Source of the DNA: a virus
Taxonomy: Duplodnaviria > Caudoviricetes
Length of the DNA stretch: 64,000 nt
Strand: one strand, 5' to 3'
Virus record (IMG/VR): IMGVR_UViG_3300025030_000042
In this document: positions 1,885-56,191 of the stretch, piece by piece
How positions within the stretch are numbered: the stretch's first letter is position 1
Layout: each line of letters begins with the position of its first letter
Notes under the pieces: generated by a model
Told to the model about the DNA's origin: nothing
The model's database searches: none
The model's input: only the letters and a program-made list of their open reading frames with translations
Made by a program: the position numbers and the translations under genes

Positions 1885-2082
1885 TCATTTATTTAACTTT
1901 ATAGCGGCACATATATTAACTCTATACTTCTCCAATATCTTGCGAGAAAGACAGGTTTCTTTTGATGCTGGAACAACAACTCTGATCCAATAATCACCTT
2001 TGTTAGAAATTTTCACGACAATGCCGATATTGCCGGCATATGATTTGATGAGATCACCTATCTTAATATCATCTTTATTCAT
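1885..2082 (-). CDS. Small KVGDL-family protein
   Basis: IKIGDLIK...IGIVVKI motif. Confidence 0.7.
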   Translation of the reverse strand: MNKDDIKIGDLIKSYAGNIGIVVKISNKGDYWIRVVVPASKETCLSRKILEKYRVNICAAIKLNK

Positions 2083-2275
2083 TTAACTTAATGAGTCTTT
2101 TTTCAAAATCGAATGTTTTCTCAAAAACATTGTAACTGCTATCATTACCCTTAACAACAACAATATAATGATACTTTGTCATATCAAGTTCTGGAACGAT
2201 TTTTATTATTATTCCAATACTTCCGGCGATTGTATTTCTTATGAGATCGCCAACTTTAATAATGGATTTCGGCAT
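2075..2275 (-). CDS. Small KVGDL-family protein
   Basis: IKVGDLIR...IGIIIKI. Likely start is MPKS at 2275. Overlaps the next gene. Confidence 0.7.
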   Translation of the reverse strand: MPKSIIKVGDLIRNTIAGSIGIIIKIVPELDMTKYHYIVVVKGNDSSYNVFEKTFDFEKRLIKLNE

Positions 2276-2431
2276 TTTGATCATCCATCAAATATTCATC
2301 CCAATCGTAATAACAAGTTTTGCTTTCAAGTGGATGATTCGAAACATATTTTTTTAAAGAATCCAATGTCGAAAATGGTCCGATAATATATCGACCTTCG
2401 TGATGTTCTACCAAAACCAGAATCCATATTT

Positions 2432-2890
2432 TCATTGTTTACTCTTTTGTTCCAAATACTTCTTATACTCAGCGCATGTTCTGCGGTTATGACCTTTTTC
2501 GCAACAAAACTGGCAAATATAAGTTCTTCCACTCTTCTTTTTAATATTTTGTTTTTGTTTACTTTTGCCGCCGGTGCGAACCTTTCGTTCCGTTCGCAAA
2601 TGTTGATTAATTTTGGTCTTGACCGAATCGGATGTGGACGAATATTCAATCAACGGATAAGGAAAACTGTTCAACCACTTATCCCACTCTTCTTCGGACT
2701 TGAAAGTTTTGCTCCAGATAACAAAATAGTTTTCTGATTTTGTATGTTTACCATCACCAGAGTTTCTCCAACCTTCCATATATAATTTGAGTTTATTTCC
2801 ATTCTTTAAATCAATATTTTCGGTTTGAACACGATAAAGATATTCTTCAACATTACCCGTTCTTATTCTCCAAGCGCTGGCCTCAATCAT
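2432..2890 (-). CDS. Hypothetical protein with C-terminal CCHC zinc knuckle
   Basis: CQFCCEKGHNRRTC matches C-x2-C-x4-H-x4-C, preceded by a basic linker. Confidence 0.7.
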   Translation of the reverse strand: MIEASAWRIRTGNVEEYLYRVQTENIDLKNGNKLKLYMEGWRNSGDGKHTKSENYFVIWSKTFKSEEEWDKWLNSFPYPLIEYSSTSDSVKTKINQHLRTERKVRTGGKSKQKQNIKKKSGRTYICQFCCEKGHNRRTCAEYKKYLEQKSKQ

Positions 2891-3131
2891 TTGATTCTCC
2901 CATTTTAATTAAAATAATATTCAGAAGACTGTTGCTCGCAAAATAATCAAATATATTATAATGTTTTGTTTTTATTTTGGGAAAAACATAATAATGATTT
3001 ACTGGAATTGAATTCCCAACTCCTTTTTCTATTTTATATATAAACTTTATTCCATTTTCAAAATCTATATCTTTTATTTGAATCAAATCCCCTATTTTAA
3101 AATAATAACTATTCGATGATATTTTTTTCAT
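2883..3131 (-). CDS. Small KVGDL-family protein
   Basis: YFKIGDLIQI. Likely start is MKKISS at 3131. Confidence 0.6.
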   Translation of the reverse strand: MKKISSNSYYFKIGDLIQIKDIDFENGIKFIYKIEKGVGNSIPVNHYYVFPKIKTKHYNIFDYFASNSLLNIILIKMGESND

Positions 3132-3471
3132 ATTGTCTCGCCCAAGCAACCGCATCATTCCAAGTGTTAGGTCTGTTTGAACTTACACCCATTATTTCAT
3201 ATAAAACACCAAGACGATTGATGGACATTTGTTGCCAGTTGCTCAACATTATTTCGTCACCAAGCGATACTTTATCAACTTCTTCTTCGGATAGATTTTG
3301 ATACTTTTTTTGAATCCCGGATTCGATCGACCAAGAAACTTTCTCCAACATTGCTATTGACGCATAAAGAATGTTGTTGGTAACTTTTACAATACGATAG
3401 TATCCCAGAAATTTTTGAAGAATGGCGTAGACAAAAGCCCCGCCGGCAAACCATAGAAAAGAAGTGAGCAT
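3109..3471 (-). CDS. Hypothetical protein with N-terminal transmembrane helix
   Basis: Hydrophobic N-terminus, GGAG RBS, promoter immediately upstream. Confidence 0.7.
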   Translation of the reverse strand: MLTSFLWFAGGAFVYAILQKFLGYYRIVKVTNNILYASIAMLEKVSWSIESGIQKKYQNLSEEEVDKVSLGDEIMLSNWQQMSINRLGVLYEIMGVSSNRPNTWNDAVAWARQYEKNIIE

Positions 3472-3512
3472 AAATATCTCCTGTCAAGAAAAAGTTGCTT
3501 ACCTATGATCTG

Positions 3513-3540
3513 ATTGTAACACACGAAGAGCACGTGTCAA
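3513..3540 (-). promoter_or_regulatory. Sigma70-type promoter TTGACA-N16-TACAAT (extended TGn -10)
   Basis: Read directly on the minus strand, upstream of the 3471 gene. Confidence 0.6.
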
Positions 3541-3564
3541 GAAAATATTTTATAAAGATTTCAA

Positions 3565-4188: not shown

Positions 4189-4197
4189 ATTAAAGTT

Positions 4198-5001: not shown

Positions 5002-5012
5002 TTTGTTATTTT

Positions 5013-5666
5013 TTAAAAATCATCATCTTCTGGATTATTTTCAACAGATAATAGTTCTTCGTCTAATATATCAAAAATATTTTCTATTTCATCCGCAGAA
5101 AGCAAAGCAAACTTCTTTTTCATCATATTGCCTCGCTTTTTCATTCTTCTTTCAACATTTTGTTGTTGTTTTGAAAGCAATAACTTGGTAGAGTTTTGCG
5201 TTCTTTCGCATTCTACTTCTCTCAAAAAATTCATAACTCTTTCATCATTTTCCAAATACTTATCAACAAAATCTTTGAAAAAGTCTTTTATTTTTATTCC
5301 ATCGTGATTGAGTTTAATAAAAAGTTCCGCTCTTTTTTTGTCGGACTCTTTATAAAAATAACTTTTTTTTAATATATCCTTTACCGATCTAAAATCTTCT
5401 TGACCGTAATTGACTTCTCCTTCTTCTTTTAAAAGTTTATTTTCTAAAGAACGATTACTTTTTATTATTCTTCTTTCTTCTAAAACTGTTTTTTTTTCTT
5501 CTTCTGTAAGATTGTCCCAACCTTTTTCTATAAGTTCATCATAAACTGGATAATCTAATAAAATCTTTTCTTTCTTTTCCGGCGGGGCCTCAAACTTTTT
5601 TACCCACCACGGTTGATTTTTATAATCAATCGATCCGGAAATGGTGTTATTTTTCTTCTCTTCCAT
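5013..5666 (-). CDS. Hypothetical protein
   Basis: 217-aa ORF translationally coupled to the upstream gene. Confidence 0.75.
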   Translation of the reverse strand: MEEKKNNTISGSIDYKNQPWWVKKFEAPPEKKEKILLDYPVYDELIEKGWDNLTEEEKKTVLEERRIIKSNRSLENKLLKEEGEVNYGQEDFRSVKDILKKSYFYKESDKKRAELFIKLNHDGIKIKDFFKDFVDKYLENDERVMNFLREVECERTQNSTKLLLSKQQQNVERRMKKRGNMMKKKFALLSADEIENIFDILDEELLSVENNPEDDDF

Positions 5667-6694
5667 TATGCTTTTTCTAATATATGTGGACGACTTTCTT
5701 TTTGTCCCATTGCGGTTCGTTTCATAAAATCCGCCTTATGTTGAAGTTCTTTTATATTGAATGCCCCCGAATAAGATAATCCAGAACGAACACCACGACA
5801 AATATCTTCAATCACATCTTCAACACATCCTTTATAATCAACATAGGTTGAAATCCCCTCATCCGAAGAAAACTCACCTTTATATGATATTTGTGCGGTT
5901 TTAGATCCCATACCAGAATATACTTTACACAAACGATTATTGTGGGCTAGAATATCTCCGGGACATTGATCTGTGCCGGCGAGCATTGACCCAAGCATTA
6001 CAAAAGATCCGCCCGCTCCCAAAGCTTTGACGACATCTCCACTATTTTTACATCCACCATCAGCAATAATCGGAACGCCATATTGTTTTGAAATAGAACA
6101 GCAATCTACTATTGATTGAAATGTTGGTAAACCATGACCAGTTTGAACAGAAGTGCTACAGATTGAACCTGGAGATACTCCCACACGAATACTATTCGCA
6201 CCGGCTTGACACAAACCTTCAAAAGCATCCTCTGTAGCAACATTGCCGACCATCAAATGGAAGCGATCATTAAATCTATTTTTGATTTCAAATATTGCTT
6301 GTTCCATCAATATAGAATCGCCGTGGGCAACATCTAAACAAATAATATCAACATTATATTGTTCCAACACCTCTATTCTTTTTAGATAATCTCCAGTTAC
6401 TCCAACAGCAAAAGCAGTTAAAACATTGTGTTCATTCAGTTTTTTTATAATATCAACTTGTCTTTCTAATGTCATATAACGATGAACAATACCCAATCCA
6501 CCGACGCGAGACATTGCGAGTGCCATTTCAATTTCACAAATCGTGCTCATTGGACTGGCGATAATAGGAATAGAAAGATTGATGTTTCTTCCAAGATTTG
6601 AAGACAAATCAACATCTTTTCTACTTTTGACCATACTGTATTGTGGAACCAAAAGAACATCGTCATAACATAAGGCAGTTTTTATTTCATTCAT
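5666..6694 (-). CDS. IMP dehydrogenase / GMP reductase family enzyme (no CBS domains)
   Basis: YDDVLLVP, IIASPM, DVAHG, GNVAT, PGSICST (catalytic Cys), IADGG, VMLGSMLAG, YSGMGS. guaB versus guaC not resolved by eye. Confidence 0.9.
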   Translation of the reverse strand: MNEIKTALCYDDVLLVPQYSMVKSRKDVDLSSNLGRNINLSIPIIASPMSTICEIEMALAMSRVGGLGIVHRYMTLERQVDIIKKLNEHNVLTAFAVGVTGDYLKRIEVLEQYNVDIICLDVAHGDSILMEQAIFEIKNRFNDRFHLMVGNVATEDAFEGLCQAGANSIRVGVSPGSICSTSVQTGHGLPTFQSIVDCCSISKQYGVPIIADGGCKNSGDVVKALGAGGSFVMLGSMLAGTDQCPGDILAHNNRLCKVYSGMGSKTAQISYKGEFSSDEGISTYVDYKGCVEDVIEDICRGVRSGLSYSGAFNIKELQHKADFMKRTAMGQKESRPHILEKA

Positions 6695-6697
6695 ATT

Positions 6698-7189
6698 TTA
6701 TCTATCCAAAATTTCAAAATAAGGGGAATCATTGATACAAAGATTTCGACATCCGCTATCAAAAACAACCACCATTGAAGGAAATGGAGCAGAGTTTTTG
6801 CTATCGCCAAACTTCAATCGACCTTTGACAAAATATATTTTATATGCTTTCATACAATATTGATGAAAAGACTTCGTATCTGTTCTTGCCGGCAAAAGCA
6901 TTACTACTTTAGTATTCGGTTTAAGACTCTCCAAATATCCCTTCTCAACCCATCGCTTAAGATCTTTTCCGTAAGGCGGGTTATTATATATAACATTATT
7001 ACTCCAATCTTGTTTTAGCCCATCATCTTCAACGGTGTAAAACTTTGAACATTTGGCATTTTCTTTTGTTGACGCCGGATCCAAAGTAAATGGACCGAAC
7101 ATAGTATTTAGTTTGTTATAAAAACCTTGTGGTGTAGCCCATTCGTTATCTTTGGAGGAAAATAAAACTTCTTGTGTTTTTTTGTTCAT
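6698..7189 (-). CDS. Phage DNA N6-adenine methyltransferase (Dam-like)
   Basis: EWATPQ, FTLDPAS, NPPY, LLPARTDT, GRLKFG, APFPS. Confidence 0.9.
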   Translation of the reverse strand: MNKKTQEVLFSSKDNEWATPQGFYNKLNTMFGPFTLDPASTKENAKCSKFYTVEDDGLKQDWSNNVIYNNPPYGKDLKRWVEKGYLESLKPNTKVVMLLPARTDTKSFHQYCMKAYKIYFVKGRLKFGDSKNSAPFPSMVVVFDSGCRNLCINDSPYFEILDR

Positions 7190-7190
7190 T

Positions 7191-7748
7191 TTATTTTTCC
7201 AAATTTAATAAATCTATATCAGATTCTACTTCATTACCCCAAACATCCCAACCATCTGATTTATTACGAGCAAATAACTCAATGCGAGGTAAATCACCAC
7301 ACAAATCTATAATTCTTTTTTTAACTTCTTCTGGTTTTTTACTATGAGATTCTATAGGGGTATCAACAATAGAATGAACTCCACAATTTATCCTTTTTGG
7401 TTTTCCTTTCGTAGCGATCAAACAAAGTTCAGCGTTTGCTCTTGTCCATCTTCCCATACCCCAAAACCAACTTGGTGCTTTTTTATTTCTTTTTACCCAA
7501 GTAAATCCAACAGTTTTATATTCAAATCCCCATTGAGAAATAACTGACCAACATTCATTCAACTTTGGCATTGTTACCCATAAAAATAAAATACTATCAT
7601 CTGTTGAAATGTCTTTTACTGGAAGATTACAAATCCAGTTATTGGATTGTGTGTTATATTTACAACCAGCACCTCTATTTCCCGATAATGCTTTATCTTT
7701 ATATTCCCACGGAGGATCGGCATATATAATATTATATTTTTTATTCAT
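7191..7748 (-). CDS. MT-A70 family adenine methyltransferase
   Basis: IIYADPPW, LFLWVT, WGFEYKT, HSKKP, RIELFAR. Real start is ATG 7748, just after the dUTPase stop. Confidence 0.9.
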   Translation of the reverse strand: MNKKYNIIYADPPWEYKDKALSGNRGAGCKYNTQSNNWICNLPVKDISTDDSILFLWVTMPKLNECWSVISQWGFEYKTVGFTWVKRNKKAPSWFWGMGRWTRANAELCLIATKGKPKRINCGVHSIVDTPIESHSKKPEEVKKRIIDLCGDLPRIELFARNKSDGWDVWGNEVESDIDLLNLEK

Positions 7749-7749
7749 T

Positions 7750-8241
7750 TTAATCTCCCGTTGTCCCGAACCCGCCTCTCGTGGCTCTATTTGATTCTTG
7801 AAGTTCTTCCAACGGCATTTCGCAAATATCAGGTTGTAACAATGGTCGCAAAATAAGTTGGGCAATACGAGAATGTTTTTTTAATGTAATGGCATTCAAA
7901 TAATAAGAATCTTCTGATAATACATTTAGTAATGGAATCTTGATTTCGTCGGCGGGGCCGCAAAAATCAAAATCCAAAACGCCTACGCCATTTACCTGAA
8001 CAAGTCCGGGATTTTTTATTGGCGTGCTCGATCTCAAACACAACTCATACCAATATCCCATCGGCGGTTTTACGACAATGCCGGTTCTTGCCAATACTAC
8101 TTGCCTTGGTGGAATAAAAGTATCTTCCAACAAATATAGATCACAACCAGACGATTGCGGAGTCCCATAAGTCGGAATGATTGCGTCTGGATGGATTCTT
8201 GTAAAATATGATTTGGCACGACCTTTATTTGTGTTTGTCAT
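7750..8241 (-). CDS. dut: Trimeric dUTPase
   Basis: SGCDL, RSS, GVLDFDFCG, RIAQL, RGGFGTTG motifs. Likely start 8241. Confidence 0.9.
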   Translation of the reverse strand: MTNTNKGRAKSYFTRIHPDAIIPTYGTPQSSGCDLYLLEDTFIPPRQVVLARTGIVVKPPMGYWYELCLRSSTPIKNPGLVQVNGVGVLDFDFCGPADEIKIPLLNVLSEDSYYLNAITLKKHSRIAQLILRPLLQPDICEMPLEELQESNRATRGGFGTTGD

Positions 8242-8245
8242 TATA

Positions 8246-8563
8246 TCACCACCACTCTTCATTATCTTTTTCTTCAACCCATTCTGCTCCATCGTATTCA
8301 CGAATTTTATAGGGTCCCGAAACGCTTTCCACCTCTAAATTCCCCAATCCCAACAAACAAACATAATTTTTATTATATTTCTCTTGTATTTCCTTAACCA
8401 TTTGTAAAACAACTGAGTGATTTTCTGTTAAAATCTCTCCTTTTTCAACAAGTTCAATAATCGGTTCATATTCCGCCATAAACTTCCCAACGCCTTCATT
8501 ATTCCAAGACGACCATCCCGCGCCATATCCTCTTGATATTAATACTTTTTTCATTTCAACCAC
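8246..8563 (-). CDS. Hypothetical phage protein
   Basis: ORF in tight operon with GYGAGWSSW and EYDGAEWV motifs. Confidence 0.7.
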   Translation of the reverse strand: MVEMKKVLISRGYGAGWSSWNNEGVGKFMAEYEPIIELVEKGEILTENHSVVLQMVKEIQEKYNKNYVCLLGLGNLEVESVSGPYKIREYDGAEWVEEKDNEEWW

Positions 8564-9289: not shown

Positions 9290-9574
9290 CTATTTTTCAT
9301 TCTCTTCGCATTTCATATAATACCCATTTAATATTGCGTCTTTGATTTTTCGATCGTTTTCCTTTCGTTCATATTTTTCAATAATACGATCCAAATACCA
9401 TTTCGCTTTTTTAAGATCTTTTAAAGGTTCTTCTTTGAAAGGATGTCTGGAAACATATTTTATAATGTTTCCGGTCGCAAAATCCATATTCCAGGACTCA
9501 ATGAAATCTATTACTTCTATTCCTTGATTATAATGGGAGGGATGATTTACTTGTTCTTTTTTGTTTTCATTCAC
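9290..9574 (-). CDS. DUF3310 / SaV-like protein
   Basis: VNHPSHYN.GIEVIDFI...GNIIKYVSR...DLKKAKWYL. Confidence 0.85.
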   Translation of the reverse strand: MNENKKEQVNHPSHYNQGIEVIDFIESWNMDFATGNIIKYVSRHPFKEEPLKDLKKAKWYLDRIIEKYERKENDRKIKDAILNGYYMKCEENEK

Positions 9575-9807
9575 ATTAGCACCTTTTCTACTTGATCTAA
9601 ATCGCTTTTCCAGATTTTCGGAAACCCTTTATATTGTGGCCAGTAACATACGATTTTTATTGTTCCGTTGACCGATTCATACATTTCATATACAACACCA
9701 ACTCCAAAAAATCCATGCCACATTTCCGCTTCTCTATCAATAAACTTTACAAGATTTCCTATCTTTATCTGCTCAACAATCTTGATCTTTTTTCTTTCCT
9801 GTGTCAT
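9571..9807 (-). CDS. Small KVGDL-family protein
   Basis: IKIGNLVKF...GVGVVYE...VCYW. Confidence 0.65.
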   Translation of the reverse strand: MTQERKKIKIVEQIKIGNLVKFIDREAEMWHGFFGVGVVYEMYESVNGTIKIVCYWPQYKGFPKIWKSDLDQVEKVLM

Positions 9808-10255: not shown

Positions 10256-10473
10256 TCAACCACCCATTTTACCAACTCAATGAAATCTTTTGGAAACCCA
10301 ACATTTTCAATATTATGAAGAAATATCATATTATTTTCTATTCTACTTATTTTTCCAAGATGTCCATCAATTCCTTTTAGTTCTTTTGGAAGTTGATAAT
10401 CTTTTGGTATTCTTACGAACGCCCAATCGTTTATCTTCGGTATTCTTGATATTTCTTTCGTCATTTCTGGCAA
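10237..10473 (-). CDS. Hypothetical protein (possible divergent KVGDL-family member)
   Basis: PKINDW...LGKISRI, in tight operon. Confidence 0.55.
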   Translation of the reverse strand: MPEMTKEISRIPKINDWAFVRIPKDYQLPKELKGIDGHLGKISRIENNMIFLHNIENVGFPKDFIELVKWVVECPTTK

Positions 10474-10661
10474 ACTTTTTTAATAAAATCCAAATTATCA
10501 ACAATCTTAAATGGTTCATAATGTATTTCGGAAATATCTGCCCAATATATTCTATATGATTTTCCCTTAGCAGATAAAATCACACCAAACGCCTCTTTTT
10601 GAACATTATGAATATCATACTTCATTCTTATCAAATCACCTTGTTTATATTTCGGCGGCAT
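10461..10661 (-). CDS. Small KVGDL-family protein
   Basis: YKQGDLIRM...FGVILS...YRIYW. Likely start 10661. Confidence 0.7.
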   Translation of the reverse strand: MPPKYKQGDLIRMKYDIHNVQKEAFGVILSAKGKSYRIYWADISEIHYEPFKIVDNLDFIKKVCQK

Positions 10662-11661
10662 TGTAAGACCATTTGATTTCTTTTGTTGTATTCGTATTTT
10701 TTTGAACGGCATCAATAAAAATATTCTTAAACTCTTCTTCATTGGAACATTCATAAAGTTCATTATTCATATTGAAAAGTTTCCATACTCCGACTTCTTT
10801 AAGAATGTCCATTTTATTGACGATTAAATGTGTTGCTCCGTTGATTTGAATGGCGCGAATGAGGGAAGGTAGATCCAAATAGTTACAGAATCTTTTTCTT
10901 CCTGTCGTTGCTCCGATTTCTTTTCCAACTACCTGTAATCGCTCAAGATTTGAATCATTCGTATTCTGGAATCCTATTTTGTTTCCCACATATGTATCAT
11001 ATGATTTACACACACCTACGATATTTCTAATCCATTGGTGCGGAATACCACTCAACAACGCTCCAGCGGCAGTGGTATGAGAACTTGTAACATAAGGATA
11101 CTCTCCGATCGAAATATCAAGAAATGTTCCCTGTGCTCCCTCCATAAGAATCGTTTTTGATTTTCCATCGTGTATTTCATCATAAAAATCAACAAGATAC
11201 GACTGAAGTTCTGGAACATCTTTTGCTTGTAATCCAATGCGAGCATATTTATCGCGATATGCCGGACCAATACCTTGTTTTGTTGTGCCGATCTTTGAAT
11301 CTCGTTCGTCTTCCAAAATATTATCAAATGTAACAATGTGTGTGTTTCTTGAGATTTTCACCAAATCGTGAATGTTTTTGATGCCGGCATCATATAAAGA
11401 AGACATTTCTTCAAAAAACTTTACTGGATTTAAAACACATTCGGGACCGATAATGGATTTAATACCAAAGAATATTCCTGCCGGTAAATGGTGAAGAATG
11501 ACTTTTTCGTCATTATGATACAGCGATCCACCTGAATTACCACCGCCACTAAAACGTATTGAATGTGTATAATCTCCGTTTTTCAATAGATTGTAGCAAA
11601 TTTTTTTCTTTCCGCAATCTCCCCATTTTAAATCTATAAGAATATCAACGACTTGCGTCAT
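10645..11661 (-). CDS. purA: Adenylosuccinate synthetase (short form)
   Basis: WGDCGK, RFSGGGNSG, HHLPAG, GTTKQGIGPAY, EGAQG, YPYVTSS, GATTGRKR, NKMD. Likely start 11661. Confidence 0.9.
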   Translation of the reverse strand: MTQVVDILIDLKWGDCGKKKICYNLLKNGDYTHSIRFSGGGNSGGSLYHNDEKVILHHLPAGIFFGIKSIIGPECVLNPVKFFEEMSSLYDAGIKNIHDLVKISRNTHIVTFDNILEDERDSKIGTTKQGIGPAYRDKYARIGLQAKDVPELQSYLVDFYDEIHDGKSKTILMEGAQGTFLDISIGEYPYVTSSHTTAAGALLSGIPHQWIRNIVGVCKSYDTYVGNKIGFQNTNDSNLERLQVVGKEIGATTGRKRFCNYLDLPSLIRAIQINGATHLIVNKMDILKEVGVWKLFNMNNELYECSNEEEFKNIFIDAVQKNTNTTKEIKWSYNAAEI

Positions 11662-12002
11662 CTTAACACCTTTAGTTGCCAAATCTCTTTTGATAGTTCT
11701 TCATAATCTTCAAATTGCCCGAATAGTTTATCATCAAACATAAAACAAAAAATATCATATACTTCTTTATAAAAATCATCAAATGATTTGAACCTTTCAA
11801 AAGCCTCCAAAATAAGTTCTGCTTCTGGAAAGTATTCATCAGGCGCGCCCAAAGAAAACAACGCCATTGGATCGTGATGAGCAATAATGTCTGCGATCAT
11901 TTTTGTTGTGATGATCATTTCATTTTCCCTTGGTTGTGGATAAAATGTGTTTTCCTTGGCACAAGGCCAAATATGAGTTGTATAAGGATTTTTATCATCC
12001 AT
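11658..12002 (-). CDS. Hypothetical protein (DUF1871-like)
   Basis: DPMALF.LGAPDEY..EA motif. Confidence 0.6.
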   Translation of the reverse strand: MDDKNPYTTHIWPCAKENTFYPQPRENEMIITTKMIADIIAHHDPMALFSLGAPDEYFPEAELILEAFERFKSFDDFYKEVYDIFCFMFDDKLFGQFEDYEELSKEIWQLKVLR

Positions 12003-12366
12003 TTTCGTTTTCTGTTTCTATTTTGGTCAACCTCGTATCTTCTTCTATCGATTCAATCCCTCGTTTGGTCCAAAAAACAATACTATATTTACCAAAAACG
12101 CCTTGATAATAAACTTATCTTTTTTAGAATGACACCATGCTCTTCCTTAGAAGTCCCCACGGAACTTTTTTAACTAAATCACCGACATTTAAATCTGGAA
12201 TAGAACCCGTATGGGTATATGTATATGGAAGATTAAATACTCCTGCGGTATTGTTGCCGGTTATAGTTATAGTTCTAAACTCACTATTGTCGCCGGTAAG
12301 AAAATCCGATTGTATGTCTTCCAAGGCTTTTTTTAAAGAACAGGGTGCAATATCTTTCTTTTTCAT
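11995..12366 (-). pseudogene. ORF whose C-terminal KVGDL domain is broken by two compensating frameshifts
   Basis: IPDLNVGDLVKKVPWG in frame A, HGVILKK in frame B, YYQGVFGKYSIVFWTKRG back in frame A, ending at TGA 11995-11997 overlapping the next ATG. Confidence 0.5.
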
Positions 12367-12372: not shown

Positions 12373-13623
12373 TTATCCCAACAGTTTCCAAGTTCTTTTG
12401 ATGGCGCCTCTCGTCGAAAAACTCCATTGAGGGCTCCAATCCGGCTTTATCATATATGGACGATTAACATATATTGTATCCTTATTTATATCAATCCCCC
12501 AACATCTTATTGATGTCTGTTTGGAGTTGCTATCAATAAGATCGACAACATAATAATCTTTTCCTTTACCGGTTTTCTTTTGTATTACATTTCGTGGGAT
12601 TGCCCACACACAATCGCAAAGTTCCGGATCATACTCGCTTATCGGCGGTATACACATTTCTTCCAGTCTTCTCAACAACTTCTCTGACATTACCATATCG
12701 AACGGAAAAATGCCAGACAAAGTTGTGGCGTGCTCGATTTTTTGTTCCTCGGAGAAGTCCGGTTGACCACGATATTCCTCAATGTTTTCAAGGAGTTGTT
12801 TTTCGGTTTTAGGACGATTAAAAACAATAGAGCACCACATATGTTTTGTATGCTCAAAACGATTGTCCATAATGGACTTTAATGATTCGGACTTCACAAG
12901 AACATCAAGAGATTTTTTGTTTAGTTTTTGATAGGAGATATTTTCATTAAACAGAAGTTCTTCAATGGTGTTGAATGGGCGATTGTTGATGATTTGTTCC
13001 ATTGCTTTGTCACCCAAGCCTTTAAGTGATGTGAAAGGCTGGACGAGCGTTTTATCGTCATTCGGATCAATCTCCCAGTTTGCGGTGGATTTATTAATAT
13101 CGCAAGGAGAGATTGTAAAGTTTAAACTTTTCACAAGATTGATGGCTTTTTCTTTTTTATCTTCTGATTCCGCGTCTAAATATGCCGAACTCCATTCAGC
13201 AGGGTAATAGTTAAGAAGATAAGCACAAGTATATGAAATGATTGAATAAGAGATCGAATGCGAACGATTAAACGAATATTTTGAAAAGAAAATCATCTTT
13301 TGCCAAAGTTCTTCAGCATCAGAAAGTTTAATCTTTTTTTCCAAACACCCATCAATAAACTTCTGATATAATCTATTTTTAACCTCTTCTTCTTTTCCAG
13401 TACCCTTCTTTGTTAATACCTTACGAAGCAATTGTCCTTCGTCAAGCGAAATATCCTTGCCGAGTTTATGAGCAATTTCAGACAACTGTTCTTGAAAAAT
13501 ACAATTATGAACTAATATATTGTTGGCAAAAAAGTTATTATTTTTTTCTACCTCTATGTCATATACTTTTTTAGGAATTTCGTTCCTTGTAATAGATTTT
13601 ATCTTTATTCTTTTGATTTCCAT
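12373..13623 (-). CDS. dnaE: DNA polymerase III alpha C-terminal half, preceded by split-intein C-fragment
   Basis: 40-aa IntC ending LVHN, then CIFQEQ, KYSFNRSHS, YPAEW and HhH/OB-fold region. Own GGGAG RBS. Confidence 0.92.
   Translation of the reverse strand: MEIKRIKIKSITRNEIPKKVYDIEVEKNNNFFANNILVHNCIFQEQLSEIAHKLGKDISLDEGQLLRKVLTKKGTGKEEEVKNRLYQKFIDGCLEKKIKLSDAEELWQKMIFFSKYSFNRSHSISYSIISYTCAYLLNYYPAEWSSAYLDAESEDKKEKAINLVKSLNFTISPCDINKSTANWEIDPNDDKTLVQPFTSLKGLGDKAMEQIINNRPFNTIEELLFNENISYQKLNKKSLDVLVKSESLKSIMDNRFEHTKHMWCSIVFNRPKTEKQLLENIEEYRGQPDFSEEQKIEHATTLSGIFPFDMVMSEKLLRRLEEMCIPPISEYDPELCDCVWAIPRNVIQKKTGKGKDYYVVDLIDSNSKQTSIRCWGIDINKDTIYVNRPYMIKPDWSPQWSFSTRGAIKRTWKLLG
13504..13623 (-). 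mobile_element. Split intein C-fragment (IntC, 40 aa)
   Basis: Block F VYDIEV..NNNFFAN, block G VHN, Cys at +1. Confidence 0.92.
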
Positions 13624-14447
13624 TTTTCTATTTCTCCCTTTCTTAAATCTTCTAAAAATTCTGTTGATAAACTTCCATAAATTCTACAAATTTCATAATT
13701 ATTTTTAATCGCTTTTTGTGTATAAAATTCATCAACATATTTTTGTTTTTTCATTCTTTGTGTTAAAACAAATTTATCTTCATTTCCGTGCCAATAATCA
13801 CCATCATATTCTATAATAAGATGTTTGTTAATAATATAAAAATCATATATATGATTAACATTATCAATTTTATACCCCGATATTATATCATCCTCACAAA
13901 CATTTTTGAGTTTATCTTCAAAATCTATTTCTTCTTGAGATCTGTTAACATTTTTTTTCATATCGTGATAAATTAACATATGATGAGATAATCCAGATCT
14001 GTATTTAAAAATCTGATTACAAATTTTACAAATTATTTTTTTTTCTTTTCCGCAAGTTGCTTTGTGTGCTCGTAAAGAAGTGTTTGTAGAAAACTCTTTA
14101 TTACAATTCTCACAATTAAAAACTCCAAATTGAATAATTTTATCTCTAAATTTTGAAGCAGTTATTTTATCTTTCCACTCTTTAGATTGTTTTCTACCTT
14201 TATATCTTCTTTTTAATAGTTCATTTGAACATTTTTTACTACAAGCAATATAACTCCTTACTCTACTCTCGGGAACTCGTTCTTTTTTTCCACACCTACG
14301 ACAATAAACATCTACTCTGTTTTTTTCATATTTATTTTTTCTAAAAAGAGATAAACATTCCTTTGAACACGTTTTTGTTATTCTTTTTGATTGAACATTT
14401 TTAACAAATTCTTTCTCGCAAACCTCACAAACAAATTGTTTATTCAT
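13605..14447 (-). CDS. Free-standing Vsr/DUF559-like endonuclease with multiple zinc-binding modules (putative homing endonuclease)
   Basis: CxxC repeats, a NUMOD3-like basic segment, C2H2/C2HC-like fingers, and RSQEE...YDFY...IIEYDGDYWHG. GAGGAGG RBS. Confidence 0.85.
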   Translation of the reverse strand: MNKQFVCEVCEKEFVKNVQSKRITKTCSKECLSLFRKNKYEKNRVDVYCRRCGKKERVPESRVRSYIACSKKCSNELLKRRYKGRKQSKEWKDKITASKFRDKIIQFGVFNCENCNKEFSTNTSLRAHKATCGKEKKIICKICNQIFKYRSGLSHHMLIYHDMKKNVNRSQEEIDFEDKLKNVCEDDIISGYKIDNVNHIYDFYIINKHLIIEYDGDYWHGNEDKFVLTQRMKKQKYVDEFYTQKAIKNNYEICRIYGSLSTEFLEDLRKGEIEKWKSKE

Positions 14448-14488
14448 ATATCAAGATCCTCCTCTTGATATATAAGTAGTTCAATTGT

Positions 14489-14779
14489 TTAATTAATTAT
14501 TAAAATTTCATCTTCAATTGATAAATCTTTAACCATTTTTAACCCATTTGAAGTATAAATTAAATGCTCTCCAGTTAATTCTATACATCCTTCTTCGGTT
14601 GAAATAGTAAAGGTTTCTTTATATCCCATAAATTTTCCATTTATTATTTTATCTTCTTCGATATATTTTTTCGTTATATTATAAGAAGGTAATAAAACAT
14701 CAAAAAGATTATTTTCTACTATATTTTCAATATTTATTTCTCCATCTTCTGTTAAAATTTTCACATCCCCCGCTAGACA
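14489..14779 (-). mobile_element. Split intein N-fragment (IntN, 96 aa)
   Basis: Block A CLAGDVKILT and block B IELTGEHLIYT (TxxH), followed by a stop codon. Confidence 0.92.
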
Positions 14780-17107
14780 ATGACCAAAAGTGGATCCCAA
14801 TATTTTTTCCAAAATCGGATGAATATATTTTATTGTATCTGGATTTTCTTTTGAATTTAGATAAAGTTTATCAACGTTTGCCTGCAAAGTTCCAGGTCGC
14901 ATGATACTTGTCACATCACTCAACTCATTTATTGAATATGGTTTAACTATTTTACAAAAGTTTTGAGCATTTTTTTCTGTAAACTGAAATATAGCAATCC
15001 AGTTTCCATTGTGAAAAGCATTTTCCCAAACATTTCTATCATTTAGATTTAATTTATCTGGATGAAGATTTTCATTATAATACTTCCAAACATCTTGTAT
15101 TTGAGGATCTGTATTATTATGATTTCGCTTTAAAATTATACGAATACATTGCTCAATAATCCGCAATGTTTTTAAACCAAGTAAATCAAATTTTAAAATT
15201 CCTCGGCGTTCCAAATGGCGAACTGCCTGCCCTTCCGTCCACGGTGAGACGCACTTTCCTCCATTATTGATCAATGGCATCCATTTATTTAAATCTTCTC
15301 CAATACAAGTTCCTCCTGCGTGAACACCATGAGAACGAACCTGACCTTGAAGTGCTTCTACTCGTTTTTTAACTTCTGGATATTGTTCAAAAAACCCACG
15401 AAGCGTTTTACTGTATCTACAATATTCCTCAAAAGTTGGAACATAAACGCCAGCAGATTGATCGTGTTCTTTTTTCGCTAATGGTATTGCTTCGCTATCC
15501 ATTTTACTCGTTACATAGTTCACTTCGCCAAATGGAATATCATAATATTTACTAATATCTTTGATAAGCGATTTTAACTGAAGAGTATTAAAGTTTGAAA
15601 TAAGAACAACGGAGTTTTCTCCCCATTCTTTAATCAAGTGTTCTTTTAGTTTTACTGGCTCGGAAAAATCTACGTCCAGATCAGGGAAGTCCACAGCATC
15701 TCTACGTAAAAAGCGTGAAAACTGAAGATTGTATTTAATCGGATCGATTTGTGTTATATCTAATACATATGCCAATAAAGTTCCCGCCCCAGAACCTCTT
15801 GCTGGTCCAATCAAACAAATCTTTCTCGCCTCCTCCACAATCGCCTTCATTGTTACAAAGTATTTTGAAAACCCTCGATCCTTTATGACATATAACTCTT
15901 CCTTCAATCTCTCAACATATTCTTTTTTCTTGTTTAACCCCTTTTTCTTCAATCCCTCGATCGCCAACTTCGCCAAATAACCGTTTTCATCTTCTCCACT
16001 TAGAACGACAAAGTTCGGCAACCTCACCTTGTTATCCGGTTCAAACTCTTCAACGAGAACGAAAGCAATATCGTGTGTTCTCTCCAATGTCTCCCGAATG
16101 AAATCATCATCATAAGAATATCCACACATCTTGGAATATTTCTTATAATCTGACCATAATTGGTCGCCGTTTTTCGGATACAAAGTATATCCGATTTCCT
16201 CAAGATTTTCGGGTATTTCGTCGCTCAGCCAAGAGGGTTTTTCGCGATTTGATTTTCCAAGCCATCCGAGGCGCTTATAAAGTTCTCGATCCCGCCAGGC
16301 ATCTGGTCTTGGATAATGCGCATCAACACAAGAAATAACTTTAAAATCATATTCTTTTGATAACTCAATAACGAGCGTATTTAATCTGTGTTGTTCTGGA
16401 ATATTATTCCATTGTAACTCGCCGAAAAAATGTTCATTACCAAATATGGAAAGCATTTTTTCTATCGGAGTTCTCATAAGTTCATAGAGTTCCGAATGGG
16501 TTTTTTCTTTATTTTGCCAGATGACTTGTGCCAAAATTCCGCCAATACACCCACTTGTAGTTATTAAACCTTCACTGTAGGTTTTAAGATTTTCATAATC
16601 AATTCTGGGATATCTATAGAAGTTATCTCCTCTGTATGAAAGAGAAATAAGCTGGAATAGATTGTTTAGTCCCGTTTGATTTTTTACTAAAGTGGTTAAA
16701 TGTCCTCTTCTGTTTATTTTATTTTTATGGTATCGGCGTAAATCTTCTTCATCTTCAAGAGAGATGGCGGAATGTTCTTCGTCTTTGTCGTTTTTCTTTT
16801 CTTTCTTATCCGCTTTATATCTCTCGTATTCAACCTTCCATTCTTCAACGGAATCAATGAAATAAAGTTCACTTCCAAAAACTTGACGAAGATACTTTCC
16901 CTCTTTTTTCAGTTTTTCATATGCTTCAAGTTGATATGTAAAACCATTCATATTACCGTGATCGGTCAGACAAAAAGCATCCAGACCGTTTTCCCAACAA
17001 TAACGCATATGTTCTTCTGGATGACCCAAGGCATCGAACGGAGAGCCAATATCGCTGTGATGATGAAGATTTACGAACTTTATTGATGGTTTTTGTCGTT
17101 CGGACAT
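14489..17107 (-). CDS. dnaE: DNA polymerase III alpha N-terminal half (PHP + palm) ending in split-intein N-fragment
   Basis: HHHSD PHP, TDHGN, GPARGSGAG, PDLDVDF, HAGG, KFDLLGLKTL, RPG motifs. Confidence 0.95.
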   Translation of the reverse strand: MSERQKPSIKFVNLHHHSDIGSPFDALGHPEEHMRYCWENGLDAFCLTDHGNMNGFTYQLEAYEKLKKEGKYLRQVFGSELYFIDSVEEWKVEYERYKADKKEKKNDKDEEHSAISLEDEEDLRRYHKNKINRRGHLTTLVKNQTGLNNLFQLISLSYRGDNFYRYPRIDYENLKTYSEGLITTSGCIGGILAQVIWQNKEKTHSELYELMRTPIEKMLSIFGNEHFFGELQWNNIPEQHRLNTLVIELSKEYDFKVISCVDAHYPRPDAWRDRELYKRLGWLGKSNREKPSWLSDEIPENLEEIGYTLYPKNGDQLWSDYKKYSKMCGYSYDDDFIRETLERTHDIAFVLVEEFEPDNKVRLPNFVVLSGEDENGYLAKLAIEGLKKKGLNKKKEYVERLKEELYVIKDRGFSKYFVTMKAIVEEARKICLIGPARGSGAGTLLAYVLDITQIDPIKYNLQFSRFLRRDAVDFPDLDVDFSEPVKLKEHLIKEWGENSVVLISNFNTLQLKSLIKDISKYYDIPFGEVNYVTSKMDSEAIPLAKKEHDQSAGVYVPTFEEYCRYSKTLRGFFEQYPEVKKRVEALQGQVRSHGVHAGGTCIGEDLNKWMPLINNGGKCVSPWTEGQAVRHLERRGILKFDLLGLKTLRIIEQCIRIILKRNHNNTDPQIQDVWKYYNENLHPDKLNLNDRNVWENAFHNGNWIAIFQFTEKNAQNFCKIVKPYSINELSDVTSIMRPGTLQANVDKLYLNSKENPDTIKYIHPILEKILGSTFGHCLAGDVKILTEDGEINIENIVENNLFDVLLPSYNITKKYIEEDKIINGKFMGYKETFTISTEEGCIELTGEHLIYTSNGLKMVKDLSIEDEILIIN

Positions 17108-17298
17108 ATAACATACCTTTCTAATGCTGACACATAATATTTTGTGAAACCATTAGGATCTTTAAACCAATAAACACTATAAAGATCACTTAAATACTTC
17201 CGTTCTATTTTAATAATAACTCCAAGGCTTACTTCTCGTAGATAGTTGATATGTTTTACAAGATCGCCAACCACAAGTTTATTCTGATTTATCTTCAT
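17080..17298 (-). CDS. Small KVGDL-family protein
   Basis: LVVGDLVKH...LGVIIKI...YSVYW. Confidence 0.7.
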   Translation of the reverse strand: MKINQNKLVVGDLVKHINYLREVSLGVIIKIERKYLSDLYSVYWFKDPNGFTKYYVSALERYVICPNDKNHQ

Positions 17299-29333: not shown

Positions 29334-29362
29334 AGAATAGCACTACTCTCCTTCTTTGTCAA
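29334..29362 (-). promoter_or_regulatory. Sigma70-type promoter TTGACA-N17-TATTCT (TGn extended)
   Basis: The -35 lies within the last codons of recA. Drives the deaminase operon. Confidence 0.65.
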
Positions 29363-46495: not shown

Positions 46496-47404
46496 TTAAA
46501 TATTCACCCAAGTTTTATAATGAATAATAGAATGTAATGTTGAAACATTAATATCATATTCTTTAGAAAGTTGAGAATAACTATATGTTCCGGTCGAATA
46601 TTTTCTTCGTATCTCTATAACCTTTTCACAAGTAAGTTTTGTGGTTGGATGATTTTCTCCGCATTTTTTAATATAAATATAATCTTCATTTTTCCAGTTT
46701 TTATTGTTTATAATACTTTGAATAGATGATATTTTTGTATTATATTCATCCGCCAAATCACCATATGTATACAATCCGGATTGATATTTTTCTCTAATCT
46801 CATTTGCCTTTTCTATAGAAAATAAAAAGTTTTTCCCTTTTCTGATTTTAAGTGGTTTATAATCTTCATCTTTCCAAATTTTATTTTTTAATATTCTTTC
46901 GGCGTGTCCCTTTTTAAGATTATATTTTTTATTTATATCACAAATAAACATATTTGTTTTAGCATAATCTTCTCTTATATGATTTACTATTTCCCAAGTT
47001 AAAATAGACCGTGAATGATTTTCTCCACTATTTTTTTCTTTTGCTTCTTTAGACCAAAATCTTGTATTAAAATAAAATTTTATATCATAATGACAGTTAT
47101 ATCCCTTTAAATCACTACAAGAATCTAATGCTTTTATTCACATTTTTTCTTTATTTACAATATCTTCTGGATTTTCATTTTTTTCTAGAATAATGAACTT
47201 AAAGTTTTCTTCTCCATATTTATTAAATGAGTTTTGTAAATGTTTATTGAAATGTTTTTGTTTTTTAAGTTTTCTATAATGAGTTTTAAGTCTAACTTTA
47301 AAATCAAGAGTTGCTCCAACATATTTTTTATCATTGATAATATTTTTAATACAATATATTCCCGATATTTCTTTTACACTTAAATAGTCAAAATCATTTA
47401 ACAT
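46496..47404 (-). pseudogene. GIY-YIG homing endonuclease with 3 HTH repeats, interrupted by an in-frame TGA (47138-47140)
   Basis: GIYCI...YVG...R...H. The frame continues after TGA (IKALDSCSDLKGYN) into the 46496-46951 ORF, 303 codons in total. Confidence 0.85.
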
Positions 47405-53423: not shown

Positions 53424-53425
53424 TT

Positions 53426-54202: not shown

Positions 54203-54207
54203 TGTCG

Positions 54208-55494
54208 TTAACCCATAAAAATAAGCATTGGTATTTGATCGGCGATTTTTTCGCTACTTTCGGCGATCTTGGCATCTTTTTCTGCCAACTTCTCATATGT
54301 TAGTTCGTCAAGAAGTTCTTTCAGTTCTTTTCGCAGTTCTTCTTTTTCTTCCTTTGCTTGCGAAAGAAGTTCGGGACCATTTAAGGTTACTTCACCATTC
54401 GGAATGGGAACCGAAGCGATCTTTGAACGAATATTTCCCAATATTTCTTTTGTTAGAGCAAGAGCATATCGTTTTATCCACATTTTACCAATACCATTGA
54501 TATTTTCAAACGGTAGTTGAGAAAATGGAAGACTGTTCACATTGTTTATTCCATCAATGCCAATCGTTCGGTTTGTATCTTCTTCCCATCCGTTTCCGGC
54601 AACAGAAAACTTTATCCACATTTTACTGGGAGATCCAGAAGAAGGAGGTGGAAATAAACGAAGCTTATTATTTTTAAGTTCATATGAATAGTGACTGTTT
54701 CTTACCCAAATCGCATCTTCATAGTTCATTGCTTGAAGTCTATTCTGCCACACCGGAATGACTTCAAAAGTTGAATCATCGGAATATTGACCGTAGTTGG
54801 TTAGGTTTCCAACAACATTGAGACCACCGTAAAACCCATAAAATCTCCACATTGCTTGTGGTGTTTTATAGTATACTTTTGTTACCAATATTTTTTTGTT
54901 GCCCACCTTTCCGTAATATTCTGCACCCGAAACATCCGATGCCGATACGATCGTCTGAAGATCATAATCTTGAAGACCACGAGTTACGGTAAACGAAGCA
55001 GAATATTCGGTTATGCTACCGCCAACTCCGGAATCCGCACCGACACCATCAAATACTCGTTTAGCGTATCCAAAGGAAAACTTTGGATATTTTAGATTTA
55101 TATGAGTTCCAGAAAGATCGGTTTTGAGTTGACTTGTCTTTAGAACACCATCTTGATCAAATGTTCCGGTGGCTTGACCAAGAAGACTGCTCAAGGTATT
55201 CTTTGCTTGGTGTTGATTTAAAATATAGGAATATTCAAGAGTTGACTCTTCGTAGGCGCCATAAACATTCGCCGGCACGATTTCAAGATCGAGAACATCG
55301 CCACCAAGGCGATAATATGTAAATGCGACTTGATCGACCGCGCCGGAAATGAAATCGGTTGAATAAAAGTCCGAAGTTGGATCAGAATATATCTGAAACG
55401 GACAACCGGCATTTACTAATGTTGCCGATCCGGTTGATGTCAAAACGGAAACCGATGTATTTGAAGTAGGGGTTAATGTAGGATAAGCCGACAA
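54208..55494 (-). CDS. Head-tail adaptor / neck protein (gp13-like)
   Basis: LGGDVLDLEI, WIKRYALALTKEILG.IRSK...IP.G.VTLNG..L..A..E...L..EL. Confidence 0.8.
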   Translation of the reverse strand: MSAYPTLTPTSNTSVSVLTSTGSATLVNAGCPFQIYSDPTSDFYSTDFISGAVDQVAFTYYRLGGDVLDLEIVPANVYGAYEESTLEYSYILNQHQAKNTLSSLLGQATGTFDQDGVLKTSQLKTDLSGTHINLKYPKFSFGYAKRVFDGVGADSGVGGSITEYSASFTVTRGLQDYDLQTIVSASDVSGAEYYGKVGNKKILVTKVYYKTPQAMWRFYGFYGGLNVVGNLTNYGQYSDDSTFEVIPVWQNRLQAMNYEDAIWVRNSHYSYELKNNKLRLFPPPSSGSPSKMWIKFSVAGNGWEEDTNRTIGIDGINNVNSLPFSQLPFENINGIGKMWIKRYALALTKEILGNIRSKIASVPIPNGEVTLNGPELLSQAKEEKEELRKELKELLDELTYEKLAEKDAKIAESSEKIADQIPMLIFMG

Positions 55495-55525
55495 ATCATA
55501 TAAATCTCCATTGGTTTGCTATAGA

Positions 55526-55532
55526 TAAATAG
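55526..55532 (-). promoter_or_regulatory. Candidate late promoter motif CTATTTA
   Basis: Upstream of the neck gene. Confidence 0.55.
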
Positions 55533-55557
55533 TTGGTGGGCATCATAAAAGAAAATG

Positions 55558-55737
55558 TTAGACAGAAACTACAAGTTTAACAGATGTTGTATGAATGCTT
55601 ATACAACGGTCAAATATATATCTTTCAATGCGCTTTTGTTTTAAACAATATATAGTCATAACTGTTGATGTTACTTTTATGACCATACAATACCCAGACC
55701 AATCGAGAAGATCGCCGACTTTTGGAAAATATAGCAT
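55558..55737 (-). CDS. Small KVGDL-family protein (59 aa, not in ORF track)
   Basis: Hand translation MLYFPKVGDLLDWSGYCMVIKVTSTVMTIYCLK... Starts right after the stop of the 55738 ORF. Confidence 0.6.
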   Translation of the reverse strand: MLYFPKVGDLLDWSGYCMVIKVTSTVMTIYCLKQKRIERYIFDRCISIHTTSVKLVVSV

Positions 55738-55935
55738 TTATTTTAACTTTTTAAGTCTGGGATTCAAGATTCGTTCTGGAAGAACATATTTATAATCTAT
55801 CCAAAATATATTCACATAATCATATCCGCCAAGATAGAATTTATTTATAACTATTCCTATAGGATGCCTTCGTTTGGCCAGCGAGTCTTTTTCCCACTCC
55901 CAACAAACAAGATCTCCGACTTTGAAGTCATTCAT
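55738..55935 (-). CDS. Small KVGDL-family protein
   Basis: FKVGDLVCW...IGIVINK...VNIFW. Confidence 0.7.
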   Translation of the reverse strand: MNDFKVGDLVCWEWEKDSLAKRRHPIGIVINKFYLGGYDYVNIFWIDYKYVLPERILNPRLKKLK

Positions 55936-56191
55936 TTTTATTTTTACTGCTGGCAAGGAGTTTATCGGTTTTGTAGATTTCAAAGCCGCTTAAAATCTCA
56001 TAAGTATCTCCGTAGTTTGTCGCAAAAACTTTATAAGTCGTATATTTTTCACAATCACATAAATAACGTTTTTCACGTATTGATTTATCTAATATCAAAT
56101 ATATATAAGTTCCTTCTTTTGAAGTGTTTGATAGGAGATCGCCCGGTTTTAGGTTCAAGCGGAGTTTTTGGCAGAGGCGGCAGAGGGGCAT
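55928..56191 (-). CDS. Small KVGDL-family-like protein
   Basis: LKPGDLL...YLILDK...YKVF. Confidence 0.55.
   Translation of the reverse strand: MPLCRLCQKLRLNLKPGDLLSNTSKEGTYIYLILDKSIREKRYLCDCEKYTTYKVFATNYGDTYEILSGFEIYKTDKLLASSKNKNE

Follow-up and report, generated by a model that had tools for sequence, protein, structure and literature searches.

Related barrels and gene shuffling in T4-type phages

KOW domains, such as those of NusG/Spt5, uL24, eS4 and eL21, are five-stranded SH3-like barrels in which strand 1 follows the pattern x-x-G-D-x-V and strand 2 the pattern G-x-V, and the KOW motif itself is a tight, conserved hairpin (Gly-x-x-Lys-Gly) by which strand 1 is joined to strand 2. The predicted barrel and both strand patterns recur in the subject of this report, a family of small proteins encoded in a 64-kb window (64,000 nucleotides (nt), the whole stretch of DNA analysed) of virus record IMGVR_UViG_3300025030_000042 (Duplodnaviria; Caudoviricetes), in which about 20 dispersed paralogues had been proposed from the sequence alone (hereafter the original prediction). 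Unlike in KOW domains, however, the loop between GDLV and G-I-V in the phage proteins is variable in length and sequence and lacks the conserved Lys-Gly, and the phage proteins stand alone, in dozens of copies, instead of forming domains of transcription or ribosomal proteins. Barrel topology and size are also shared with the PcrA/UvrD C-terminal and RapA Tudor domains and with eukaryotic Tudor and PWWP domains; for Tudor-type domains that dock on RNA polymerase, the likeness to the modelled phage proteins is at the level of the fold class only, without a sequence match.

Stand-alone phage or prophage barrels of 50-85 residues have been described in YorP of the Bacillus subtilis SPbeta prophage (PDB 2heq; Z 7.5 and template modelling (TM) score 0.72 against the phage family), DUF2187, DUF4926 and Hva1-Tudor, which the proteins described here resemble in this respect but to whose Pfam families they have no sequence match. 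We know of no function for any of these four, nor of any report of them as dozens of copies per genome, and families of dozens of paralogues within one phage are, to our knowledge, rare. In the hyperplastic regions of T4-type phages, small non-core genes lying amid core genes are inserted, deleted or replaced by recombination at a short repeat, a process known as PeSL shuffling, where the repeat is an intergenic sigma-70-like promoter with a stem-loop terminator (PMC2839356, PMC4122927). The turnover reported below is similar, but its repeat is the coding start of the gene and all of its cassettes belong to one protein family.

One expanded family of small paralogues

The copies in the window are homologous and protein-coding, and form one expanded and diversified family. 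All 18 open reading frames (ORFs) of the original prediction were recovered on the minus strand with the coordinates and translations described; 13 of them are firm members, two are probable (9571 and 55558, copies being named here by their first coordinate) and three are possible (27208, 21760 and 55928), and two broken copies complete the set. Membership was assessed by leave-one-out, each copy in turn being scored with a hidden Markov model (HMM) built from the other 17, and E being scaled to a search space of the 1065 six-frame ORFs of the window. Thirteen of the 18 pass with E between 2e-12 and 4e-3 (1885, 2075, 2883, 10461, 17080, 20377, 26819, 27000, 28323, 28541, 28692, 33110 and 55738), and the significance of these matches disposes, for those copies, of the motif convergence that had been considered as an alternative. 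A profile of the 13 firm copies places the five remaining candidates at the top of all ORFs outside its training set (E 0.012-0.27), with one unrelated ORF among them, the best shuffled ORF reaching E 0.28. A profile made from 116 external homologues alone recovers the same 13 and adds 9571 (E 1.5e-3). The hhalign probability is 56% for 55558 and 8-13% for 27208, 21760 and 55928, in all cases with the correct register. On a related contig (L014), the orthologues of 55558 and 55928 stand at the two ends of a five-member row (E 1.7e-3 and 0.025, respectively), which the conserved 55928 orthologue heads. The copies, with lengths in amino acids (aa), are as follows.

1885-2082, minus strand: firm, 65 aa, in tandem with 2075 (leave-one-out E 2.2e-7; external-profile E 8.6e-9)
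2075-2284, minus strand: firm, 69 aa (leave-one-out E 1.3e-6; external-profile E 8.9e-9)
2883-3158, minus strand: firm, 91 aa, divergent (leave-one-out E 4e-3; external-profile E 1.7e-5)
9571-9807, minus strand: probable, 78 aa, KIGNL variant (leave-one-out E 0.23; external-profile E 1.5e-3 over the whole profile)
10461-10661, minus strand: firm, 66 aa from an internal ATG, the longer ORF (to 10763) overlapping the PurZ-like gene (leave-one-out E 1.7e-5; called as 66 aa in L015)
17080-17298, minus strand: firm, 72 aa, overlaps the start of the DNA polymerase gene (leave-one-out E 1.5e-10)
20377-20643, minus strand: firm, 88 aa, long RT loop (leave-one-out E 3.3e-8)
21760-22017, minus strand: possible, very divergent, 85 aa, EIGDM, acidic (E 0.27-0.38; hhalign 9%, register right)
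26819-27019, minus strand: firm, 66 aa, the modelled copy (leave-one-out E 3e-11)
27000-27233, minus strand: firm, 77 aa (leave-one-out E 8.5e-8)
27208-27390, minus strand: possible, 60 aa, KIGTL, acidic (E 0.09-0.7; hhalign 13%)
28323-28538, minus strand: firm, 71 aa, IPDLNVGDLV, overlaps the start of the 5'-3' exonuclease gene (leave-one-out E 2.3e-12)
28541-28711, minus strand: firm, 56 aa, MKMKIGSL (leave-one-out E 1.5e-5)
28692-28883, minus strand: firm, 63 aa, whole gene absent from L011 (leave-one-out E 2e-4)
33110-33304, minus strand: firm, 64 aa, single copy (leave-one-out E 4.8e-7)
55558-55737, minus strand: probable, 59 aa, last of a triplet (E 0.03-0.1; hhalign 56%; orthologues in L002 and L014, the latter with E 1.7e-3)
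55738-55935, minus strand: firm, 65 aa from ATG, mosaic RT loop (leave-one-out E 5e-8)
55928-56191, minus strand: possible, 87 aa, KPGDL, Cys-rich, first of the triplet (E 0.012-0.78; hhalign 8%)
1-155, minus strand: frameshifted relic, its 3' end past the window start (central strand in the -1 frame after A7; 42.1 against 24.5 bits)
about 11995-12203, minus strand: frameshifted relic fused to the 3' end of ORF 12124-12366 (A6 run; 22.4 against 6.4 bits)

The three motifs originally read are kept as K-V-G-D-L-V in strand 1, G-I-[IV] in strand 2 and Y-x-V-x-W in strand 3, while amino-acid identity between copies is 20-40%. K[VI]GDL is found 10 times in the frames of the minus strand and never in those of the plus strand (about 0.1 in shuffles). 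The reported pair with IPDLNVGDLV does share 14 identical nt, and the tandem pairs and triplets and the overlaps with neighbours are as described, 13 of the 18 copies overlapping or abutting (0-2 nt) the upstream gene. The proteins are basic, with a median isoelectric point (pI) of 9.3 against 7.25 for the larger proteins of the window, and aromatic-rich (14% against 10.6%); two candidate copies (21760 and 27208) are acidic.

Some copies have decayed by frameshifts at A-runs. The two suspected broken copies proved to be real frameshifted relics, as judged from the gain in profile score on frame correction. In both, the N-terminal KVGDLV and the C-terminal Y-x-V-F-W lie in one frame and the central G-V-I-L-K strand in the -1 frame, with the first break at the A-run listed above for each. 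When the three pieces of each relic are joined with X at the breaks, the score rises from 24.5 to 42.1 bits (155-1) and from 6.4 to 22.4 bits (12203-11995). Thirty-six contigs from four sources (NCBI, JGI, ENA and Logan) carry the truncated product of the second relic (ORF 12124-12366) without a single differing letter, so that its break is real and not an assembly error; at its end this relic has kept the ATGxTGA overlap with the gene that follows. The tail of the relic at 1-155 is visible in the contig that runs past the window start (L015), with an intact member right behind it.

A predicted SH3-like barrel

Family members are, according to the structural model, five-stranded SH3-like barrels with KOW, Tudor and PWWP domains as nearest neighbours. 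An AlphaFold prediction from the alignment of 13 paralogues only reached a predicted local distance difference test score (pLDDT) of 73, and prediction of the 26819 copy with 129 homologues gave a pLDDT of 88.3 and a predicted TM score (pTM) of 0.73, with five strands (residues 11-14, 24-31, 36-41, 46-51 and 55-57). This AlphaFold 2 model has the five antiparallel strands and the RT, n-Src and distal loops by which the class of SH3-like small beta-barrels is recognised. Comparison by VIA-align returned 196 PDB representatives at a Z of at least 5, all of them SH3-like small barrels, including KOW6-7 of Spt5 (Z 8.4), archaeal Spt5 and the N-terminal domain of Hpy99I (both 8.0), a PWWP domain bound to single-stranded DNA (ssDNA; 7.8), the Tudor domains of PHF19 and TDRD3, NdhS and the prophage protein YorP (7.5). 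Foldseek, which the original prediction had recommended together with structure prediction, likewise returned SH3-like small barrels (HERC2, YorP, PWWP, KOW and Tudor domains, TM 0.6-0.74), so that the SH3/KOW/Tudor-like barrel it had proposed is upheld by both the model and its best matches. The PDB matches include PWWP domains and the Tudor domains of PHF1, TDRD3 and SGF29, and structure neighbours in the ESM Atlas include clusters with PcrA_UvrD_tudor, with Tudor_RapA and with UvrD-helicase C-terminal regions (TM about 0.7). When the family profile was compared with the sequences of solved chains, none fell below E 0.01, the nearest being the KOW domain of NusG from T. maritima (E 0.011), eS4 (E 0.04) and eL21. 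No match of structure or profile makes the phage proteins members of any of these families.

The conserved motifs fall on strands 1-3 of the model, and variation, in length as well as in sequence, is concentrated in the n-Src loop and in the RT loop, which has roughly 6 to 17 residues. These two loops are described as the usual ligand face of the SH3-like fold in a published survey (10.1101/140376).

Distribution and lineage-specific expansion

PHROG and Pfam matches of the window's proteins identify the phage as a T4-like myovirus. The core genes so recognised are a split DnaE-type DNA polymerase, a DnaB-like helicase, a class II ribonucleotide reductase with a LAGLIDADG insert, a 5'-3' exonuclease, UvsX, gp32, the tail sheath, the major head protein and a gp13-like neck protein. 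The window is low in guanine plus cytosine (31-41%), with essentially all genes on the minus strand, and its sequence recurs in many assemblies, on contigs of up to 211,467 nt. No DNA-level relative was found when 24 kb of the window were compared by megablast with 50,697 GenBank phage records.

The family does not correspond to a known Pfam family, the case that had been named as one that would overturn the original prediction, since no Pfam family matches the copies. A scan of 10 members gave no KOW match at E up to 10, and among 129 members none matched PF00467 (KOW) at E up to 0.01, a single one matching PF23037 (KOWx_SPT5) with E 0.0027; there was no match to PF21196 (PcrA_UvrD_tudor) or to PF09629 (YorP) among the members scanned. 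In PHROGs, two of the 129 members weakly matched phrog_9237 (unknown function), the only entry found, and tblastn of one member against the same 50,697 phage records gave no match.

A search of 1.84 billion representative proteins returned 141 matches at E up to 1e-3, mostly of 55-90 residues, among them 11 of the window's own proteins, two from close strains and a few two-domain fusions. External representatives form about 116 clusters, mostly of small proteins, in metagenomes. Large multi-domain matches (DUF11, SLH and TIR proteins) were rejected as members, being generic SH3-like repeats that match mainly the KVGD strand. Metagenome proteins P0025, P0034, P0036, P0106 and P0133 (96-139 aa) have two family domains per chain and look like fusions of tandem genes. 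Of the best 100 ESM Atlas clusters, 96 are unnamed Uroviricota proteins of 60-75 residues, and a BFVD search found many unnamed phage proteins of similar size. About a dozen of the top 50 BFVD matches have neighbouring UniProt accessions (A0A516M7xx/A0A516MAxx/A0A516MBxx), which hints that one other phage genome or study may also carry many copies of such small barrels.

Closer to the window, five more firm members lie in the 9.6 kb past its start (L015). Three relatives with an exonuclease about 53% identical keep the core gene order but hold 0-1 members in the syntenic 21 kb, with other small ORFs in the slots; the expansion is lineage-specific because these distant relatives have so few.

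Gain and loss of whole units between close relatives

Close relatives differ by whole in-frame units of the family, with junctions at the conserved gene start, which is a new result of the comparison of insertion-site occupancy that the original prediction had called for. Three slots differ in this way, the window having one unit against two in L001, three against two in L011 and three against five in L014. The 17080 slot, which separates a 337-aa gene from the polymerase gene, contains two tandem members in L001 (96% identical) and one in the window. The 17080 gene is chimeric, its first 8 codons being those of the first L001 gene and the remainder that of the second, with an in-frame difference of 210 nt and a junction 0-6 nt before the G-D-L codons. 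In the slot at 28.3-28.9 kb, between the dCMP deaminase and the exonuclease, the unit at 28692-28883 is missing from L011; it is bounded by the near-identical MKIG starts (ATGAAAATnGG...TTTGATA) of two adjoining genes. In the slot at 55.5-56.2 kb, between an HNH-type gene and gp13, the extra 375 nt of L014 are bounded by a 43-nt repeat that extends from 13 nt upstream of the ATG through MNDFKVGDLV. All three junctions lie within the segment formed by the start codon and KVGDLV; with breakpoints spread evenly over a 200-nt unit, three of three in a start segment of about 45 nt would have a chance of about 1%, by our own rough estimate.

Mosaicism is also seen below the level of the unit. Compared with L002, the 55738 gene is 94% identical in nucleotides over the KVGDLV codons, 51% in the RT loop, with a 9-nt indel, and 95% from P-I-G-I-V onward, and the DNA upstream of the motif is unalignable. 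Its four alleles combine leaders, loops and tails differently. In the target of a diversity-generating retroelement, the variable region would differ from its template at adenines only and a reverse transcriptase would lie nearby; read by eye in the alignment with L002, the RT-loop substitutions of 55738 are of all types and not adenine-specific, in addition to the 9-nt indel. The sole difference between L012 and the window is an in-frame 21-nt indel in the leader of 55928. Loci L004-L007 and L013 are the window letter for letter, and gene differences there are due to the gene caller only.

Intergenic cassettes of the PeSL type were considered and ruled out by the overlap or abutment of 13 of the 18 copies and by the unconserved upstream DNA, although no dedicated promoter or terminator scan was made; since genes overlap or abut, there is no room for an intergenic promoter-terminator element.

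Constraint on the proteins

The family evolves several times faster than the adjoining core genes, mainly in the RT and n-Src loops, and does so under purifying selection. The ratio of non-synonymous to synonymous substitution rates (dN/dS) was obtained for family and core orthologues on the same contigs of close relatives with 89-96% nucleotide identity, which are represented by short contigs from runs SRR26726065 and SRR13727534 and from assembly GCA_030689965.1. It is 0.05 for UvsX, 0.05 for the dCMP deaminase, 0.04 for the gp13-like gene and 0.09 for the 337-aa gene, against 0.18-0.67 for five orthologue pairs of the family, in which there are in-frame loop indels as well. In L011, the 28323 orthologue is 83% identical with a dN/dS of 0.33, and the 28541 orthologue has a dN/dS of 0.34 and a divergent n-Src loop. 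Ratios below 1 together with in-frame indels indicate that the genes are real and constrained, although far less so than core genes.

Among the window copies, the K-V-G-D-L codons use all synonymous alternatives and there is no conserved DNA upstream of the motif, and the only DNA repeat is the motif itself (about 30 nt), without longer ones. With synonymous sites free and repeats of only about 30 nt, conservation is at the protein level and the duplications are old. Recent tandem amplification of the 'genomic accordion' kind was ruled out on similar grounds, by the 20-40% aa identity between copies and the absence of repeats beyond the motif.

A proposed panel of small binders and alternative explanations

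On balance we find it slightly more probable than the contrary that the copies represent a lineage-specific birth-and-death family of stand-alone SH3-like proteins of 55-90 residues, serving as a small binder panel in the operons of a T4-like phage. Units would be added, fused, deleted and left to decay, and loops re-assorted. The short 5' coding motif and, to a lesser degree, G-I-V could provide the homology at which the phage recombination machinery deletes, adds or re-assorts units and loops; a UvsX homologue is encoded at 29343-30503. The proteins would then be a panel of small binding modules, different copies recognising different host or phage macromolecules through their variable loops, and the basic charge and closeness to KOW domains would speak for targets associated with nucleic acids, for example RNA polymerase, the ribosome, or the DNA and RNA themselves. 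That a conserved core, diversified loops, fast evolution, turnover and lineage-specific expansion add up to a binder panel facing changing targets has, in our judgement, close to an even chance. Host-binding or anti-defence effectors, one of the functions floated in the original prediction, would also fit divergence focused on the loops.

Several points weigh against this. Fold, loop variability and charge are the only grounds for a binding panel, and small beta-barrels do very many jobs, so that the fold alone gives no function; structural Z values of 7-8 are moreover within the range that the tool calls common for small domains. There is no significant match to a characterised family in Pfam, PHROGs, PDB or phage searches, and the expectation that no function could be assigned from sequence was borne out, none having been assigned after Pfam, PHROGs, PDB and structure searches. 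Turnover is documented by no more than three unit indels and a single mosaic, all of them from short contigs of relatives, and each unit indel can be read as gain or as loss. A DNA-level recombination signal among the window's own copies is unsupported, the synonymous positions of the motif not being conserved and adjacent copies not being significantly more alike at the 5' motif (permutation p = 0.08).

The units might instead be selfish cassettes, in which the start with KVGDLV persists by promoting its own duplication or transfer, with little or no benefit to the phage. Close relatives do differ in the presence of whole units, with junctions in the start segment, leaders, loops and tails re-assort among alleles, the relics show that copies are dispensable, and the tolerance of this genome for selfish DNA is evident from the inteins and homing endonuclease-type genes that the window has elsewhere. 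However, the unconserved synonymous sites of the motif indicate selection on the peptide and not on a DNA site, the three strand motifs and the barrel are kept across the roughly 116 external clusters, orthologue dN/dS is below 1, and no mobility enzyme (nuclease or recombinase) was seen consistently beside the window copies; we consider selfish cassettes unlikely. The 'self-spreading mini-genes' of the original prediction hold in that whole units are gained or lost at the 5' motif, but not as purely selfish DNA, to which the free synonymous sites and purifying selection are opposed. The family might also be a narrower form of the binder panel, an anti-defence battery in which each copy blocks a different host immune protein. 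Its loop-centred fast divergence, copy-number turnover, lineage-specific expansion and small proteins are features of an arms race. However, no likeness to described anti-defence proteins was found, PADLOC and anti-defence libraries not having been searched, and most copies lie within replication and nucleotide-metabolism operons and not in any block of genes evident as one for early take-over; we judge this form improbable.

The proteins might instead serve the nucleic acids of the phage itself, as small basic architectural proteins or RNA chaperones comparable to Sso7d, the ProQ C-terminal domain or Hfq, with copies as variants of dosage or timing; such a role would agree with the median pI and with nearest neighbours that include nucleic-acid-contacting KOW domains, ssDNA-bound PWWP and the ProQ C-terminal domain. 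We hold it to be very unlikely, because a dosage role leaves the extreme loop diversification and the low identity between copies unexplained, and two candidate copies are acidic. As for chance open frames in AT-rich DNA that converged on a short motif, the weak profile match of three of the 18 ORFs speaks for them, but the leave-one-out statistics refute chance for at least 13 copies, and the strand bias of the motif (10 against 0, with about 0.1 expected), dN/dS below 1 and a confident common fold leave it next to no credence. The binder panel, with birth and death of its units, is the reading that we favour.

Other features of the window

The DnaE-type polymerase (12373-17107, minus strand) is split into an 872-aa N-terminal gene (14489-17107), which corresponds to phrog_405 positions 37-716, and a 416-aa C-terminal gene (12373-13623, minus strand), which corresponds to positions 716-1038, with a 280-aa ORF (13605-14447) between the two. 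The ribonucleotide reductase (22071-25466, minus strand, 1131 aa) has a LAGLIDADG_3 match and aligns by tblastn to other phage ribonucleotide reductases in 2-3 pieces, and from its sequence probably contains an intein. An HNH/HTH homing-endonuclease-like gene (56198-57112, minus strand) lies directly upstream of the triplet at 55.5-56.2 kb, between head and neck genes. The 151-aa ORF at 46496-46951 (minus strand) has DNA segments 70-83% identical to it and is therefore a second, shorter copy.

The adenylosuccinate-synthetase-like gene at 10645-11682 (minus strand) matches the PurZ-type PHROG phrog_1211 (E 1.5e-54). Near it, among the neighbours at 5013-8301, are a dUTPase, MT-A70 and Dam methyltransferases, an IMPDH-like dehydrogenase and a second dCMP-deaminase-like protein, and together these genes may constitute a DNA base-modification or 2-aminoadenine pathway. 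At the window start, a 195-nt direct repeat with 74% identity (160-354 and 997-1191, both plus strand) connects the short plus-strand ORF 137-388 with the 5' part of an amidase/endolysin-like gene (1007-1882, plus strand), which is the only clear plus-strand gene and of which the ORF is a partial duplicate. Past the window start, at 11331-15031 of L015, a Cpn60/GroEL-like chaperonin (520 aa) and an HSP20 small heat-shock protein are interleaved with family members.

Implications for T4-like phages

The family takes up several kb of a 211-kb genome and has no database name. It offers a testable example of the turnover of non-core phage genes by recombination at the coding start of the gene, and not through intergenic promoter-terminator cassettes. 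A bolder and rather doubtful extension is that the segment of ribosome site, start codon and KVGDLV, besides encoding strand 1 of the barrel, has a second role as a portable junction for recombination, which T4-like phages of groundwater and the sea would use to trade, stack and re-assort small genes for binders or even individual loops. If this is true, these phages would possess a gene-cassette system that needs no integrase and that supplies a private and rapidly changing set of binders directed at host factors. If the copies do bind host factors, they would constitute a naturally occurring set of minimal barrel scaffolds that differ in their loops, which could aid in finding the targets of host take-over or counter-defence and might serve as a scaffold for protein engineering.

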